From IMG/VR virus record IMGVR_UViG_3300032274_000021: a DNA stretch of 38,172 bases. The stretch is one strand, 5' to 3'. The position numbers were made by a program, and so were the translations under genes. Under the pieces are notes generated by a model. That model worked only from the letters and a program-made list of their open reading frames with translations. It was not told the origin of the DNA and ran no database searches. Below, piece after piece: positions 16,095 through 25,335 of this stretch. The DNA comes from a virus. Within the stretch, counting starts at the first letter, position 1. The number at the start of each line of letters is the position of its first letter.

Positions 16095-16433
16095 TTAAAA
16101 CGGGATGGAAAGCTGCAAGCGGTTGTTGAGCGGCAAATCTGTGCGCCGGCCGATCAGGGTCAGGATGATCTGGCCAGTGGCGGAAAGGGCGAGCGATACG
16201 CGTTCCAGCGCGATGCGCGGTTCCCAGCGGCGGATGGCCCCGGCGGTGGCGGCAATCCACAGCAGGCGTGTGGCGGGCGTCAGCGGGGCATCCACCAGTT
16301 CAAACAGGCGCGAACCATAATCACGCCGCATCACGCGCGTGGTCAGGGGCGTGGTCAGGATATCGGCGATCGACTGCGCAATATGCGCTTCATCCGCCCA
16401 TGCCGCGCCGGTTTGCCGGTTCATCCCACTCAT
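16095..16433 (-). CDS. gpW: Baseplate protein W (GPW/gp25 family)
   Basis: IAQSIADILTTPLTTRVMRRDYGSRLFELVD is the GPW/gp25 signature. Confidence 0.85.
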   Translation of the reverse strand: MSGMNRQTGAAWADEAHIAQSIADILTTPLTTRVMRRDYGSRLFELVDAPLTPATRLLWIAATAGAIRRWEPRIALERVSLALSATGQIILTLIGRRTDLPLNNRLQLSIPF

Positions 16434-16939
16434 TGCGGTGCCCCGGTGTTCGATCCGCCAGACTGCACGCCGCCATGCGTGTGCGATTTCAGGCTGATGC
16501 TATCGGCCACAACATCTGTGTCAGCGGTGACGGTGCCGGTAACATTCACGTCACCCGTGATCTGCACATTGCCGGTGATTTCCACATCGCCGGGGGCCAC
16601 GATTTGCAGGCCGTCATCAGTCAGCGTGATGACCAGACCGGCAGCGCCGTGGATCTGATGGGTGGCATCATTCGCCGGGGCGGGAAAGGCATTGGAATAG
16701 ATCCCGCGCAGGATCACACCGCCTGCAATATCCCCTTCCGGGCACAGCAGTATAACCTGTTCGCCTGCGCTGGGCGGGGTCCATGTGCGGAACGAACCCG
16801 CCCATTCCATCCAGGGCAGCGGCGGAGACAGCACATCACCCCCACGGAACACAGCCGTGGCGCTGCCCAGATCGACACTTTCAACAGTGCCGATGCGCAG
16901 TAAATCGCCAAGCTGGCCGGGGATATCGTCTTCATCCAT
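16430..16939 (-). CDS. gpV: Baseplate spike/assembly protein V
   Basis: It contains LRIGTVESVDLGSATA... and a C-terminal SLKSHTHGGVQSGGSNTGAP. The start MDEDD is chosen because the track start lies inside the late-promoter palindrome. Confidence 0.85.
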   Translation of the reverse strand: MDEDDIPGQLGDLLRIGTVESVDLGSATAVFRGGDVLSPPLPWMEWAGSFRTWTPPSAGEQVILLCPEGDIAGGVILRGIYSNAFPAPANDATHQIHGAAGLVITLTDDGLQIVAPGDVEITGNVQITGDVNVTGTVTADTDVVADSISLKSHTHGGVQSGGSNTGAPQ

Positions 16940-16984
16940 TGGGGCAACATCGCGGGGGCGGGCGGGTGCATCCATGCTGCGCGC

Positions 16985-20888: not shown

Positions 20889-21209
20889 ATGGACAGACTT
20901 TTTGAAGCGGCTGCTGCACATTTCTGGTGGATCATCGCCGGAATTTCCGGGCGGATGCTGTTCCACACGCGAGAGGCGCAGGCCGGAAACCGCCGGTTCT
21001 GGGGGCGCGAATTGCCGTTTGAACTGCTGGTGGCACTGGGAATGGGCCTGATCGGATATTCGCTGTGTTCGTGGTTCGAACTGGTTGGCCCGGTGGCCGC
21101 CGGGGTGATCAGCGCCGTTGCCTATCTGGGGCCGCGCGCCATCGACACGATGTTTGACCGCGCACTGGAAGCTGGCGGCAATTTCTTTGGCAAGGGGAAG
21201 GGCAAGTGA
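20889..21209 (+). CDS. Putative holin (three predicted TM segments, charged GKGKGK tail)
   Basis: MDRLFEAAAAHFWWIIAGISG..., three hydrophobic stretches, placed immediately upstream of the endolysin with a 4-nt overlap. Confidence 0.6.
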   Translation: MDRLFEAAAAHFWWIIAGISGRMLFHTREAQAGNRRFWGRELPFELLVALGMGLIGYSLCSWFELVGPVAAGVISAVAYLGPRAIDTMFDRALEAGGNFFGKGKGK

Positions 21210-21673
21210 CCAGGCTGACCCCGCATTTCCAACTGTCCGAATTCACCAGCAGCCAGACTGCCCTGCGCCGTGGGCTGGACAATACGCCCCCGCCTGAAGT
21301 GATCGGCAATCTCAAGAATTTGTGTGAATATGTGCTGGAACCCGTGCGCAAACATTTTGGTGCGCCGGTGATTATCAGTTCCGGCTATCGTTCCCCGGCT
21401 GTCAATCGCGCAGTGCGTGGGTCTGCCAGCAGCCAGCATTGCATGGGGCAGGCCGCAGACTTTGAAATCCCCGGCATTTCCAATGTCGATATTGCGGAAT
21501 GGATACGCGACTGGCTGACTTTCGATCAGCTGATCCTGGAATTCTATACGCCCGGCGTGCCAGACAGCGGGTGGGTCCATGTCAGCTGGCGAATGCCATT
21601 GCGCAGGCAGGCGTTGACTGCGGCACGCCTGGCGCGCGGGAAAACACAATATTTTGCCGGGATCGTGGCATGA
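21206..21673 (+). CDS. Endolysin, peptidase M15 (VanY/D-Ala-D-Ala carboxypeptidase-like) family
   Basis: The SGYRS, SQHCMGQAADF and GWVHVSW motifs supply the Zn ligands H, D and H. Confidence 0.85.
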   Translation: MTRLTPHFQLSEFTSSQTALRRGLDNTPPPEVIGNLKNLCEYVLEPVRKHFGAPVIISSGYRSPAVNRAVRGSASSQHCMGQAADFEIPGISNVDIAEWIRDWLTFDQLILEFYTPGVPDSGWVHVSWRMPLRRQALTAARLARGKTQYFAGIVA

Positions 21674-21996
21674 CGCGGGAAAGCCGCATCTCGCCCTTTG
21701 TGCGGCCTGCACTGCTGTTCACCGTGGCGATGGCCTGTTTCGGCGTGGCCTTTCTGGCCGGGGCCATTGAACTGGTAAAACCGGGCTTGGGCATCCGCTT
21801 TGGCAATGCGGTGACGCAGGTGATGCGCAACGTGCCCGATGGATATCTGCAATTGTTCGGCCTGATGTTTTCCACCTATGCGCTGGGAAAAAGCGGCGAA
21901 CGCATTGTGAAGGCGCATTCCAGCGCCAAAAATGATCCGGCCAAATCGGACGGTGACAATATTCTGGCCGCGCTGGACAAGGCGAAAGAACGATGA
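21670..21996 (+). CDS. Membrane protein in the lysis cassette (possible antiholin/lysis regulator)
   Basis: The ATG overlaps the endolysin stop (ATGA). There are two hydrophobic segments (ALLFTVAMACFGVAFLAGAI and YLQLFGLMFSTYAL). Confidence 0.45.
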   Translation: MTRESRISPFVRPALLFTVAMACFGVAFLAGAIELVKPGLGIRFGNAVTQVMRNVPDGYLQLFGLMFSTYALGKSGERIVKAHSSAKNDPAKSDGDNILAALDKAKER

Positions 21997-22367
21997 ACCC
22001 TGTGGCCATCTGGAACGCGCTGATCGGACTGCCGCGATGGGCGCATCTGCTGATGGGGGCGGTGGCGCTGGCCGGGGCGGCGCTGCTGTGGTTGCAGTTC
22101 CATGACCGTGGCGTGGTAAAAAAACATGAAGCCGGTGTTTCTGCCCAGGTGGCTGAAACCGTTACCCATGCCGATCGAACCGCCATTTCCGCTGATCAGG
22201 AACGCGCCAGACAGCGCGCCACCGACAGTGCCGAAACCAAGGGAGCCATTGCCAATGCCCAAGCCAAGCACCCCGATGAAGTGCGCCGCGCTGCTGGCCC
22301 TGCCACCAATGCTGCTGCTGACAGCCTGCGGAAACGAACGGGTCAGGATCGCGGCCCCGCCCGCTGA
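21993..22367 (+). CDS. i-spanin (Rz-like)
   Basis: It has an N-terminal TM segment (LLMGAVALAGAALLWL), a charged helical periplasmic part, and a position after the endolysin. Confidence 0.7.
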   Translation: MNPVAIWNALIGLPRWAHLLMGAVALAGAALLWLQFHDRGVVKKHEAGVSAQVAETVTHADRTAISADQERARQRATDSAETKGAIANAQAKHPDEVRRAAGPATNAAADSLRKRTGQDRGPAR

Positions 22368-22572
22368 ATGGACTGATCCCGTAACCTGGCCGGAAATCCC
22401 GGCAGGTGAAGCACTATGCGCTGATGAAGGTGGGGCGATGGAACCCTGCCTGTCTGACCGGGAAACGGCGGGCCTGCTGGGCGCGCTGGGTGACGCGCTG
22501 GATGCAGCCAATGGCCAGCTGCTGAAGCTGAAAGACTGGTTCGTTGCGGCAGGCGCGGAACCGCAGGACTAA
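22255..22572 (+). CDS. o-spanin (Rz1-like lipoprotein), in the +1 frame, overlapping the 3' end of the i-spanin gene and extending past it
   Basis: It has a lipobox (MKCAALLALPPMLLLTAC with Gly at +2) and a Pro-rich mature part. An alternative start lies at 22276. Confidence 0.65.
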   Translation: MPKPSTPMKCAALLALPPMLLLTACGNERVRIAAPPAEWTDPVTWPEIPAGEALCADEGGAMEPCLSDRETAGLLGALGDALDAANGQLLKLKDWFVAAGAEPQD

Positions 22573-22575
22573 ATT

Positions 22576-22917
22576 ATGCCCGCAACCTTCACCTTCCAAC
22601 GCGGCGAACCCATCATCATTGACCTGGTGATTGATGATGCAGGCTCCATCGATCCCGTCAATGTGACGGTGGCGATGCGCCTGAAGAAAGGGACGCGTCC
22701 CCCGCCACAATCAGACCCTGCCATTGCCGAATTCGTTCTGGCCTATGTTCCCGCCAGCGGCAGTGACATGGCGTATTGGCGCGGCACCATTGCCGATTCA
22801 TCGGCTATCGATCCGGGCGATTATGTTACCGATGCTGTGCTGTCACTGGATGATGCGGTGATCGCCATCACCGATCCGGTGCGGGTGCAGATACGCGGAA
22901 GCGTGACCCCGGCATGA
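22576..22917 (+). CDS. Hypothetical protein (113 aa), beta-rich, possibly an Ig-like virion accessory protein
   Basis: The ORF lies 4 nt after the o-spanin stop, in the same late operon. Confidence 0.6.
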   Translation: MPATFTFQRGEPIIIDLVIDDAGSIDPVNVTVAMRLKKGTRPPPQSDPAIAEFVLAYVPASGSDMAYWRGTIADSSAIDPGDYVTDAVLSLDDAVIAITDPVRVQIRGSVTPA

Positions 22918-23267
22918 GTGTGATGCAGCTTTCTTTCCGGCAGGGGCCGCCCCCCATCGCCCTGTTCTGGCGCGGGCCGCAGCGCGGCGAATATCGCGCC
23001 ATTCCGCGCGATGCGACCGGGGCCATCGCCGCCATTATCGGGCCGCGTGGTGCATCCGGGCCAGCAGGCAATGGCGCGGCGCATGATCAGACCTTCAGCG
23101 CCGCAGCCAGCTGGACGGTGAACCACAATCTGGGCCGCCGCCCTGCCGCCGTGCGGGTGCTGTCCGATGGCGGGATTGAGGTGATCGCAGAGATCATCGA
23201 AATTTCGACCAACCAACTGATTGTTCAATTTGCAGTGCCGCAATCTGGCCGCTGCGTGGTTTTATGA
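22914..23267 (+). CDS. Hypothetical protein (117 aa) with a short collagen-like G-X-Y run and a C-terminal domain paralogous to the C-terminus of the next gene product
   Basis: It contains GPRGASGPAGNG. Its SWTVNHNLGRRPAAVRV...NQLIVQFAVP aligns with SFNLDHNFSSRDVSVEV...NRVTLTFAAAP in the 23279-24070 product. Confidence 0.6.
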   Translation: MSVMQLSFRQGPPPIALFWRGPQRGEYRAIPRDATGAIAAIIGPRGASGPAGNGAAHDQTFSAAASWTVNHNLGRRPAAVRVLSDGGIEVIAEIIEISTNQLIVQFAVPQSGRCVVL

Positions 23268-23278
23268 AGAGGTGAAAC

Positions 23279-24070
23279 ATGGGTAAATCTGTTCTGTCCG
23301 ATCTGGATTTCGGCAATTCGGCACGGGTCACAAACCTGCCAGAACCCGCCAATGCGCAGGATGCCGCGACCAAGAATTATGTTGACAGCGCGGTGGAAGG
23401 GATCGCGTGGAAGGACAGCGTGCGTGTGCATGCACAGGCCAATGTCAATCTGGCGGCACCGGGTGCGGCGATTGATGGCGTGAATATGGCGGTGAATGAT
23501 CGCTTTTGCGCACCGGCGCAGACGGCCACAGAAGAAAACGGTATCTATATCTGGAACGGGGCTGCGGTGCCCGCCACGCGGGCGGGTGATGCCAGCACCG
23601 CAGAGGAACTGGAACAGGCCGTGTTCACTGTGGAGGAAGGCACATCTGCCGGGGCGACATTCCGCCAGACGGCGGTCAATTTCATTCTGGATACAGATCC
23701 TGTGGCCTTCACCAGTTTCGGCACAGCAGCTGGCGCAGCATCAGAAGGCAGCGCAGGCACCGCCGAACTGGCAACGCAGGCGGAAGTGGATACCGGAACG
23801 GATGATGCGCGCATCGTCACCCCGTTGAAGCTGGCCAATTGGGCAGGCCGCAAACGCAAGGCAACCGCCACCATTGGCGATGGTGCGGCGACCAGTTTCA
23901 ACCTGGACCATAATTTCAGCAGCCGCGATGTGAGCGTGGAAGTTTACAAGAATTCGGGCAATTATGATTCCGTTCTGGTGGATGTGACCCGGCCAAGCGT
24001 GAACCGCGTGACATTGACCTTTGCCGCAGCACCGGCGCTGAATTCTTACAATGTGGTGGTGATCGGCTGA
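23279..24070 (+). CDS. Tail-fibre-like protein (263 aa)
   Basis: It has an N-terminal LDFGNSARVTNLPEPANAQDAATKNYVD motif and a fibre-repeat-like GTAELATQAEVDTGTDDARIVTPLKL. There is a Shine-Dalgarno sequence (gaagaggtg). Confidence 0.65.
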   Translation: MGKSVLSDLDFGNSARVTNLPEPANAQDAATKNYVDSAVEGIAWKDSVRVHAQANVNLAAPGAAIDGVNMAVNDRFCAPAQTATEENGIYIWNGAAVPATRAGDASTAEELEQAVFTVEEGTSAGATFRQTAVNFILDTDPVAFTSFGTAAGAASEGSAGTAELATQAEVDTGTDDARIVTPLKLANWAGRKRKATATIGDGAATSFNLDHNFSSRDVSVEVYKNSGNYDSVLVDVTRPSVNRVTLTFAAAPALNSYNVVVIG

Positions 24071-24071
24071 T

Positions 24072-24641
24072 ATGGCCAGCCAGTTCCTGTTTCCCGATAG
24101 TCTGCTTTCACCTGGTGGGTGGACGGGGGATTACAGCGATCTGGACGAGGTTGCGGCATCCGATGCCGACTTTGTGTATTCAAAGGACAGGCCCAATGGT
24201 TCGGCCATCGAAATTGGTCTGTCCAACCCGGCCAGCACGCCGGGCGGTGGGTTGGTGACGCTGAATTACCGCCATGCCCAGGTGCAATCCGGGGTGATCG
24301 ATGGCGGCGGTTCAGCAACCACTTTGGATGTCAGCCTGTACCAAGGTGGAACGCTGATTGCATCCGATGTTCAACAGGCACCGGGCGGTGCTTGGGCAAC
24401 GCGCAGCTGGCAATTTGATCCGGCGGCGGTGACAGACTGGACCGACCTGATATTCATTGCGTCTGCGGATGGTGGTGGTGGCGGACCCAGCAGTCGGCGC
24501 GGCGTTGCATTGTCATGGATCAGGATGGAAATTCCCGGCGCAGAGACAATCTATATAGGTGCAGCGGGGCAGGCCGCACGTTATCTGGGCGCGCGCGCTT
24601 CTGCCGATCTGTATCTGGGGGAAAAGGCCATCTGGCCCTGA
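24072..24641 (+). CDS. Hypothetical protein (189 aa), last gene of the lysis/accessory operon
   Basis: The ORF starts 1 nt after the previous stop. It is Gly-rich and beta-rich. Confidence 0.6.
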   Translation: MASQFLFPDSLLSPGGWTGDYSDLDEVAASDADFVYSKDRPNGSAIEIGLSNPASTPGGGLVTLNYRHAQVQSGVIDGGGSATTLDVSLYQGGTLIASDVQQAPGGAWATRSWQFDPAAVTDWTDLIFIASADGGGGGPSSRRGVALSWIRMEIPGAETIYIGAAGQAARYLGARASADLYLGEKAIWP

Positions 24642-24654
24642 TCCTGCACCGCCA

Positions 24655-25335
24655 TCAATCGCCCGCCAGATGGGCGATCACTGTATCCAGCAGCTGCGAT
24701 CTGTCCTTCGCCGTCATGCCCAGCAATTCGCGCCGTTCATATCGGGTTTCCCGTGCATGGCGGGCTGGCCTGTCCCGCAGGCCGAACTGGTGAACAGATG
24801 CCACTGCGGCAACCCGCCCGGCAAAGCCAATCCATGCTTCATGATCGTTCTGGCCAGTGTGCAAAATGCCGCTGCGCCGGATCTTGCGAAACATGGCCCG
24901 GTCCCGCACGCGGCGGCGATTCCTGATCTTGCCGCCACCGGCATTGTCTTCTTCCGGGTCAACGCGCAGCCATTTGATCACCTTGTCAAATTCAAAGCTG
25001 CGCAATCCGCGCGCTTCCCGGTCATACCCGGTGAAGATTGGCCCCTGTTTCACCCAGCTTTTCATAAAGACCAGGCGCGGCGGTCCACTGCCGCCCGATG
25101 GATAGAGGAATTTGACCGCGTAATTGCCCGGTACAGGTTCCGTGGGTGGTTTGCGCGCGGCAAAGCCAGACCCATCCGGGTTGCGTTGCGCCGCGATGCG
25201 TTGCTGGTTGGACCGGCGCATGGTGGTGGCCACCTGCCGGAACAGGCGGCGGCGCGCGGGTGCATCCAGCGATTTCAGCATCCCGCCAACGAAACTTTCC
25301 AGTTCTGCCAGATCGCCAGTTTCGGCGCGGGCCAT
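24655..25335 (-). CDS. gpS: Tail completion / virion morphogenesis protein S
   Basis: FVGGMLKSLDAPARRRLFRQVATTMRRSNQQRIAAQRNPDGSGF follows the P2 gpS family pattern. Confidence 0.8.
   Translation of the reverse strand: MARAETGDLAELESFVGGMLKSLDAPARRRLFRQVATTMRRSNQQRIAAQRNPDGSGFAARKPPTEPVPGNYAVKFLYPSGGSGPPRLVFMKSWVKQGPIFTGYDREARGLRSFEFDKVIKWLRVDPEEDNAGGGKIRNRRRVRDRAMFRKIRRSGILHTGQNDHEAWIGFAGRVAAVASVHQFGLRDRPARHARETRYERRELLGMTAKDRSQLLDTVIAHLAGD

Follow-up and report, generated by a model that had tools for sequence, protein, structure and literature searches.

Organization of the locus

The viral record IMGVR_UViG_3300032274_000021 is a metagenomic contig of a P2-like phage, and its whole length of 38,172 nucleotides (nt), or 38 kb, is referred to below as the window. 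Directly behind a set of lysis genes, its plus strand carries four open reading frames (ORFs) of 113, 117, 263, and 189 amino acids (aa), whose products are called p113, p117, p263, and p189. The initial annotation had described four packed plus-strand ORFs that follow the lysis genes and converge on the tail-completion gene gpS; the coordinates were found to be exact and the genes to be real. As judged from sequence relationships, the four genes are one copy of a horizontally mobile A-B-C-D cassette that was probably acquired between the inverted lysis genes and gpS.

22576..22917, plus strand: 113-aa ORF, p113, cassette position A
22914..23267, plus strand: 117-aa ORF, p117, cassette position B
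23279..24070, plus strand: 263-aa ORF, p263, cassette position C
24072..24641, plus strand: 189-aa ORF, p189, cassette position D

The spacing is tight throughout: p113 starts 3 nt after the stop codon of an Rz1-like gene, the p113 and p117 frames overlap by 4 nt (ATGA), and spacers of 11 nt and 1 nt separate p117 from p263 and p263 from p189, respectively.

Conservation and spread of the cassette

Cassettes were compared across 146 loci with a near full-length C gene; neighbouring genes were identified with a codon-position filter on G+C-rich DNA, and neighbour counts are approximate. In 138 of these loci, the same strand encodes a p117-like domain whose end lies 13–60 nt 5′ of C, and one of the eight loci lacking the B-type domain is cut by a contig end. 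The gene 5′ of B measures ~112 aa in many loci, and an A-like gene ending 290–450 nt before the start of C lies directly upstream in 34 of the 72 non-redundant loci; the A gene is frequent, not universal. The D slot is occupied by 40 unrelated BLAST clusters with products of 66–894 aa. Median pairwise identity among the non-redundant loci amounts to 57% for C, 42% for the C-terminal domain of B, 19% for the B N-terminus, 18% for D, and 11% for A, a pattern that fits conserved internal joints flanked by variable ends.

A large protein collection holds 4,277 homologues of C, none of them with a Pfam domain. More than 100 homologue clusters at 67–74% identity measure 261–264 aa, mostly exactly 263 or 264, and the C gene encodes 263 aa in the great majority of cassette loci. 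At least 535 stretches with C relatives were found in a scan of IMG/VR, and a scan of one genome per species recovered 73 C loci across many phyla. Loci with C at 48–68% identity come from Methylocystis, Methylobacterium, Caulobacteraceae, Hydrogenophaga, Janthinobacterium, Methylomonas, Xanthomonadaceae, and Cyanobacteriota, as well as from Coriobacteriia, Armatimonadota, Blastocatellia, Gemmataceae, Deinococcus, Ferruginibacter, and Opitutus. At least eight bacterial phyla are represented among the hosts of phages and prophages with the cassette, on both myovirus and siphovirus backbones. The nearest homologues of C (71–74% identity) reside in non-P2 backbones, for example in the lambda-type tail module of a Methylocystis prophage and in large phages with T4-like recombination genes. 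Relatives of p263 detected by tblastn are encoded by Microcystis phage Mvi-JY20 (54%), Thermus phage YS40 (49%), Rhodococcus phage E3 (gp88), and ~200 cluster C mycobacteriophages (~34%); in phage E3, the genes on either side of the C homologue are both annotated as coding for structural proteins. From one host to another, the structural proteins of phages usually become unrecognisable; C keeps 50–74% identity and a near-fixed length in phages whose hosts include Proteobacteria, Cyanobacteria, Deinococcota, Actinobacteria, Bacteroidota, and Planctomycetota. The cassette, with its strongly conserved B-C core, has spread across phyla and is no peculiarity of alphaproteobacterial P2-like prophages.

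Two P2-like relatives, L174 and L175, were retrieved via gpS (76% and 74% identical, respectively). They share the inverted-lysis layout and lack all four genes, in agreement with the original statement that the module lies outside the canonical P2 gene set. At the same site, L174 (700–2780) carries an SNase-like gene (PF00565) and a GH108 endolysin, and L175 (7680–10900) carries a GDSL-like gene of 403 aa (sub-threshold match), two small genes, and an outer-membrane protein (OMP) beta-barrel moron (PF13505). The interval that separates the inverted lysis genes from gpS is a hot spot for cargo, and the comparison of relatives proposed at the outset as a check favoured a variable cassette, close P2-like phages carrying different cargo at this very site.

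Among more than 160 cassette loci, P2-type baseplate genes are found nearby only in L106 and L138. The former, from a cyanobacterial metagenome-assembled genome, is the sole other cassette locus with clear P2-type V, W, and J: its cassette (L106, 5820–11524) lies just upstream of these genes, and its J and W are 41% and 54% identical to those of the window. Elsewhere, cassettes are found between a gpA-type terminase gene (TerL) and the portal gene, between major capsid protein (MCP) and connector genes, behind protease-capsid fusions, and behind J-like or tail-fibre genes and ahead of endolysin genes; wherever neighbours are identifiable, the insertion sites lie among late structural or lysis genes. 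The position behind the lysis genes, initially described as lying inside the lysis operon and as unusual for structural genes, is one of many insertion sites of the cassette. As a test of head versus tail association, neighbouring genes gave no decision, the cassette occupying many junctions. A search of this phage for flanking repeats marking the insertion returned only short chance matches. Co-variation of the B N-terminus with the A type (odds ratio 64) was considered as evidence of contact and rejected: since the B N-terminus co-varies strongly with D as well (odds ratio 24), the association reflects linkage and is uninformative on contacts.

The conserved core: p263 and p117

Four parts were distinguished in p263.

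p263 residues 13–40: N-terminal fibre-junction motif
p263 residues 45–135 (DNA 23411–23683): globular domain
p263 residues 153–189 (DNA 23735–23845): T4 gp34-type repeat, single copy
p263 residues 192–263: C-terminal beta-sandwich

The initial annotation had credited this protein with two hallmarks of tail fibres, of which one stands in full and the other in part. The LATQAEVDTGTDDARIVTPLKL stretch is a genuine T4 gp34-type repeat, matching the PDB chain 9x3r_M with E values of 5e-13 (single sequence) and 9.5e-28 (family profile), and the repeat at residues 153–189 (...E.xxG.a.iAT..E...Gtdd...vTP..l) also matches 9f4a_Le, 9f4b_FG, and 5iv5_O. The NLPEP...KNYVD stretch scores 19.9 bits against the T7 tail-fibre N-terminal model PF03906, below the cut-off of 25.2, and the match covers only the last 28 model positions (126–153 of 157); it is therefore retained as a junction motif and not as a PF03906 domain.

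The protein matches phrog_2647 (E 3.8e-58), and the label of this group, 'head decoration', is the sole functional label of a family that has no Pfam domain yet. The PDB chain 9nx3_A, named 'Capsid decoration protein', aligns through its residues 19–242 with residues 40–263 of p263 (E 1.6e-3 for the single sequence, 6.3e-12 for the family profile) and is 100% identical to the C-terminus of gp232, a 1151-aa 'virion structural protein' of Bxz1-type phages, e.g., ET08. A paper describing 9nx3 was not found in the literature, and 'capsid decoration' is the molecule name given by the depositors; the paper on the Myrna capsid gives a different protein, and the 'head decoration' labels on C homologues are annotations whose basis is unclear. 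Bxz1-type phages, as seen in ET08 (L172, gp232–gp236), hold two C-family paralogues. The first is a gene of ~300 aa near 57 kb that bears a head or capsid decoration label in some records; the second is the C-terminus of gp232, encoded beside minor tail proteins and LysA, and it is to this one that 9nx3 corresponds.

The AlphaFold2 (AF2) model of p263 has a mean predicted local distance difference test (pLDDT) score of 68 and two well-folded domains (45–135 and 192–263); a Foldseek search of the PDB with this model returned nothing below E 0.03 and did not recover 9nx3. The domain at residues 45–135 is densely set with invariant polar residues (D74, R75, Q81, N87, Y90, N93, R101, D104, E112, E120, R129, Q130, and N134), and its appearance suggests a binding or active site more than a passive shaft.

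The smaller core protein, p117, consists of three parts.

p117 residues 1–42: variable N-terminus
p117 residues 43–54 (DNA 23040–23075): G-X-Y run of four triplets
p117 residues ~63–117 (DNA 23100–23264): conserved C-terminal beta-sandwich

The short collagen-like run reported earlier is present as these four G-X-Y triplets and recurs at the same place, with varying length, in the alignment of the B family. With four triplets only, p117 does not contain an extended G-X-Y repeat, and it does not match Pfam Collagen. The conserved C-terminal domain of B comprises ~55 aa (W-T-I-N-H-N-L-G ... N-Q), with W67, N70, H71, N72, G74, P77, G86, and N100 nearly invariant, and the PHROG matches of p117 are confined to it; searches of the PDB with p117 and with the B-family profile gave no matches. 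In Thermus phage YS40, the B-type domain forms the end of an 822-aa protein encoded upstream of C. The proposed paralogy between the C-termini of p117 and p263 is supported by profile comparison: although BLASTP of p117 against p263 is not significant (E 1.0), hhalign aligns B 63–111 with C 203–253 at a probability of 94.6% (E 6.8e-8), and both proteins match the same C-terminal region of phrog_16122.

The properties of this common domain bear on a possible, if rather unlikely, explanation of the cassette as a capsid decoration or head-fibre module. According to this explanation, p117 and p263 would bind the capsid via their common C-terminal beta-sandwich, like the C-terminal 242 aa of gp232 in 9nx3, and, with the same low likelihood, their N-terminal parts and p189 would extend away from the capsid in the manner of Hoc or head fibres. 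The match of the C profile to 9nx3_A spans both domains (E 6e-12), and 9nx3 is itself the end of a 1151-aa virion protein, but the identity between the two is low. The beta-sandwich is always C-terminal, behind N-terminal parts of very variable length (in p117, p263, and the 822-aa protein of YS40, and likewise in phrog_16122, 38707, 8309, and 2824), which is the pattern expected of a common anchor domain; yet direct docking of a domain with ~50% conservation on capsids of P2 type, HK97 type, and other kinds is unlikely. The head decoration label of phrog_2647 speaks for this module, although such labels on C homologues have an uncertain basis and the Myrna capsid paper names another protein. 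While some cassettes adjoin MCP, portal, or terminase genes, others follow J or tail-fibre genes, and the structural relatives of the A family are tail anchors.

The variable ends: p113 and p189

Neither p113 nor p189 had shown a recognisable motif to the initial annotation, a statement that did not hold, both proteins belonging to identifiable families (a putative LtfC/p132-like family and a CBM-like jelly roll, respectively). Taken alone, p113 has no direct match in Pfam, PHROG, or the PDB, and searches of phage genomes, the PDB, and k-mer protein indices recovered only the protein itself or one relative. The A-position gene of L015/L016 encodes a relative with 34% identity to p113 along its entire length (E 2e-8), and an hhalign comparison with typical A proteins gave a probability of 72% (E 3.5e-5); only these two comparisons place p113 in the family. 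P0272 is 50% identical to p113, and the next gene after it is p117-like and shares its N-terminus with p117. A profile of the A family that includes p113 matches the structural protein 26dk_M of the Pseudomonas phage KPP25 (E 1e-9), T5 p132 (7qg9_R, E 6e-5), and LtfC of DT57C (8hqz_Q, E 1.3e-4). Among the PHROG groups, phrog_1084 is matched by typical A proteins with E values down to 2e-22, and phrog_3304, labelled 'L-shaped tail fiber protein assembly', with E values down to 4e-10; against the Pfam LtfC model PF23926 these proteins reach 24.2 bits, below the cut-off of 27. LtfC-type genes are encoded beside a fibre gene, and p113 overlaps p117 by the 4 nt given above. We propose that p113 may be a divergent immunoglobulin (Ig)-like beta-sandwich of an LtfC/p132-like family with an anchor or adaptor role.

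At the other end of the cassette, p189 is composed of two parts.

p189 residues 1–157: jelly-roll domain resembling carbohydrate-binding modules (CBM-like)
DNA 24495–24635: cassette-specific C-terminal tail of p189, ~45 aa, IYIG...YLG...LYLG

The AF2 model of p189 (pLDDT 91, predicted template modelling score 0.81) is a jelly roll. Foldseek related it to the Fbs1 sugar-binding domain, CBM4-2, CBM61, and a hyaluronan-binding module (E 4e-5 to 1e-3, TM 0.4–0.47), the structures matched being 1umi, 3jxs, 2y6k, 1gui, and 4d0q (E 4e-5 to 7e-4); in BFVD, the fold recurs among phage tail-fibre and minor-tail proteins. A k-mer search found no relatives of p189, and searches of phage genomes and the PDB returned only the protein itself or one relative. 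A full HMMER search recovered 602 relatives of residues 3–157, nearly always N-terminal in proteins of 123–2955 aa; one member of the p189 family has a weak CBM_4_9 match. None of the 79 viral loci with a p189 N-domain protein has a B or C gene nearby. The tail, on the other hand, occurs in 21 cassette loci and in every case lies 3′ of C, where it either forms the end of the D protein or has a small ORF to itself. Since the N-domain family never stands beside cassettes and the tail always lies downstream of C, p189 is, by sequence comparison, a lineage-specific fusion in which a lectin-like domain of outside origin was joined to a tail peculiar to the cassette. Separate tail ORFs of 66–91 codons follow D in L010 (8980–9198) and in L020, L021, L022, L024, and L025, and in L009–L012 the separate tail ORF had not been called by gene callers. 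Several D proteins share the N-terminal junction motif of C.

The hypervariability of the D slot, which is like that of receptor-binding tips, and the position of the cassette near J-I-H-G in this genome would both suit a host-range switching set, the cassette supplying alternative distal parts or assembly factors of the canonical H/G fibre. Such a role is very improbable, given that the cassette is unchanged in siphovirus-type and other phages without P2 H/G homologues, that none of the four proteins resembles H or G of the window in the searches run, and that the protein sizes and folds are unlike those of fibre chaperones.

Genomic setting and expression

The lysis genes and the four ORFs occupy the plus strand between gpS and gpJ.

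20955..22572, plus strand: lysis cassette, directly upstream of p113 (Pfam and PHROG matches, gene calls of the source contig)
20955–21209, plus strand: holin (PF16083)
21206–21673, plus strand: M15 endolysin (PF08291)
21670–21996, plus strand: 108-aa membrane protein
21993–22367, plus strand: Rz-like gene
22438–22572, plus strand: Rz1-like gene
24655..25335, minus strand: gpS tail-completion gene (PF05069), right border of the cargo site

The minus strand of the window carries O-N-M-L-X-R-S and J-I-H-G-V-W-FI-FII-E-T. The J-I-H-G set claimed for this phage was identified, with J, I, H, and a G-like chaperone (PF16778) all encoded in the window. The gene order departs from that of P2 in that V and W (16095–16975, minus strand) lie between the G-like chaperone and FI, whereas they are found upstream of J in P2, and in that the lysis genes (20955–22572, plus strand) are inverted, so that they diverge from J and converge on S. 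A Bro-N domain protein (PF02498; 32724–33434, minus strand) adjoins the portal gene.

The stop codons of p189 and gpS are convergent and 13 nt apart, and no terminator-like hairpin was found between them (24639–24657); opposing transcripts would enter each other's genes. Promoter-like and terminator-like sites occur no more often than in shuffled sequence, and the stretch from Rz1 to p113 contains none. The dyad of P2 Ogr-type late promoters, TGT-N12-ACA, has no match in the window (1–38172), with 4.5 expected by chance, and late gene control is probably unlike that of P2. A search for RNA evidence of co-transcription found the sequence only in DNA metagenomes (microbial mat and marine sediment). 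Co-transcription of the four genes with the lysis genes is plausible, as no terminator- or promoter-like site exceeds the shuffled expectation.

The intimate linkage to the lysis genes could also indicate a non-virion function at lysis, in which a soluble lectin-like fibre complex would be freed at burst to mask receptors or debris, bind matrix, or exclude superinfecting phages. The cassette follows the spanin genes after a 3-nt spacer without an intervening terminator, at a site that is a moron hot spot (SNase, outer-membrane beta-barrel, or GDSL-like gene in relatives), but cassettes elsewhere lie within head or tail operons, a long way from any lysis genes. The extreme conservation of C across phyla would be easier to understand if no particular virion had to be fitted; against this, wherever a location has been determined for a member or relative of the A and C families, the protein is a virion component. 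Gene-caller and Pfam outputs gave no signs of a signal peptide or membrane anchor, although no dedicated test was made. Taken together, we regard a function of this kind as improbable.

A portable accessory fibre as the preferred interpretation

The best reading of these data, held with moderate confidence, is that the cassette encodes a portable accessory fibre or decoration, expressed late, through which the phage gains glycan-binding adhesion. Of the three options initially offered, the second receptor-binding or decoration apparatus thus fits best, and a non-virion function at lysis fits poorly. The conserved internal parts, the variable ends, the fibre motifs, and the virion-located relatives of the cassette proteins are all consistent with an accessory appendage. 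Expression of the cassette genes would be late, with the lysis transcript as the probable carrier. Given the G-X-Y run of B and the gp34-type repeat of C, p117 and p263 may form trimeric fibre-like proteins, which could associate through, or dock by, their common C-terminal beta-sandwich domain. Phage-specific attachment to the particle would be provided by p113 and the variable N-terminus of p117. In gene order, the appendage would then comprise an anchor (A and the B N-terminus), a proximal piece (B), a shaft or adaptor (C), and an exchangeable tip (D), with p189 as an exchangeable distal CBM-like lectin unit held by its short conserved tail. A probably glycan-binding tip suggests reversible adhesion to surface or matrix polysaccharides, which would be useful in a microbial mat, and the appendage would supplement the H/G tail fibre rather than replace it. 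We infer virion association, oligomeric states, order of contacts, glycan binding, and site on the particle alike; the last of these could be a collar on the tail or neck, as in T5, or the capsid, as the homology to 9nx3 suggests.

Several points weigh against the accessory fibre. That the four proteins belong to the virion of this phage is something we infer, and the AF2 model of p263 is only moderate, with no significant structural neighbour. The apparent link of p113 to LtfC and p132 is weak (hhalign probability of 72%) and based in part on synteny. As A genes are missing from half of the cassettes, A cannot serve as the anchor in general. The one solved structure related to C is, by its deposited name, a capsid protein; it is ~20% identical and forms the end of a 1151-aa protein, and with this relative assigned to the capsid and the A relatives on tails, the analogies point to different sites. 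A core with 57% conservation across unrelated virion types is hard to square with direct docking on capsid or tail, and the D proteins have no common docking motif except the tail, which is itself present in a subset only.

The conservation of the core could alternatively reflect a self-contained B-C plug-in, that is, a universal adaptor that is independent of host and virion type and moves between phages of different phyla. In its full form, with A and the B N-terminus as the mount at one end and D as a series of lectin or receptor-binding cartridges at the other, this proposal is equally tentative, and we consider it doubtful in both respects. It would imply that the invariant polar residues in the 45–135 domain of C reflect a ligand or activity of its own, beyond a role as a shaft.

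If the portable accessory fibre is real, it would be a widespread means, so far uncharacterised, for unrelated phages to gain and exchange adhesion specificities, and the cassette would offer a ready-made scaffold for studying the modular evolution of host range. The mounting of side fibres on a separate collar protein, a solution regarded in the T5 structure paper as a hallmark of the T5-like group, would then extend beyond T5-like phages.

Comparison with known systems

The L-shaped fibre system of T5 and DT57C (p132/LtfC and pb1/LtfA-B) resembles the cassette in combining a small Ig-like beta-sandwich gene with adjacent fibre genes, and the A-family profile matches both p132 (E 6e-5) and LtfC (E 1.3e-4). 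In T5, twelve copies of the Ig-like p132 form a collar round the tail-tube-like ring and hold the N-termini of three L-shaped fibres, which are accessory and mediate reversible, glycan-binding adsorption beside the main receptor-binding device (PMC10038345); LtfC of DT57C has been described in similar terms in the paper on Ur-lambda (PMC12617516). Several differences exist between the two systems. For example, p113 itself has no direct match to these proteins, half of the cassettes have no A gene, and the host backbone here is a contractile-tailed P2-like phage. The present fibre proteins (117 and 263 aa) are far smaller than pb1 and unrelated to it, and a ring gene of the p140 kind was not identified, although no search was aimed at one.

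The 9nx3 protein of Bxz1-type phages (C-terminal 242 aa of gp232; phrog_2824/phrog_2647) is homologous to p263 over the globular domain and the C-terminal beta-sandwich. It differs in its low identity (~20%), in that the gp34-type repeat is not conserved there, and in forming the tail end of a 1151-aa protein, whereas p263 is free-standing with an N-terminal motif of its own. Furthermore, cluster C loci show no B-like neighbour.

T4 Hoc and Wac are non-essential extra appendages encoded at the edge of structural operons, confer reversible adhesion, and are horizontally exchanged. The same features would connect the cassette to Stf/Tfa of lambda (for Ur-lambda, PMC12617516), where, in contrast to the arrangement proposed here, the collar is made by the N-terminus of Stf itself. 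No sequence relationship to the cassette was detected for lambda Stf/Tfa or for T4 Hoc/Wac.

Finally, the p189 family differs from CBM4/9-type and Fbs1-type jelly rolls in being phage-specific and usually N-terminal in long proteins, and the TM-scores reach only 0.4–0.47. The predicted fold of residues 1–157 is nevertheless like that of these domains (Foldseek E 4e-5 to 1e-3), and sugar binding by p189 is predicted from this fold.

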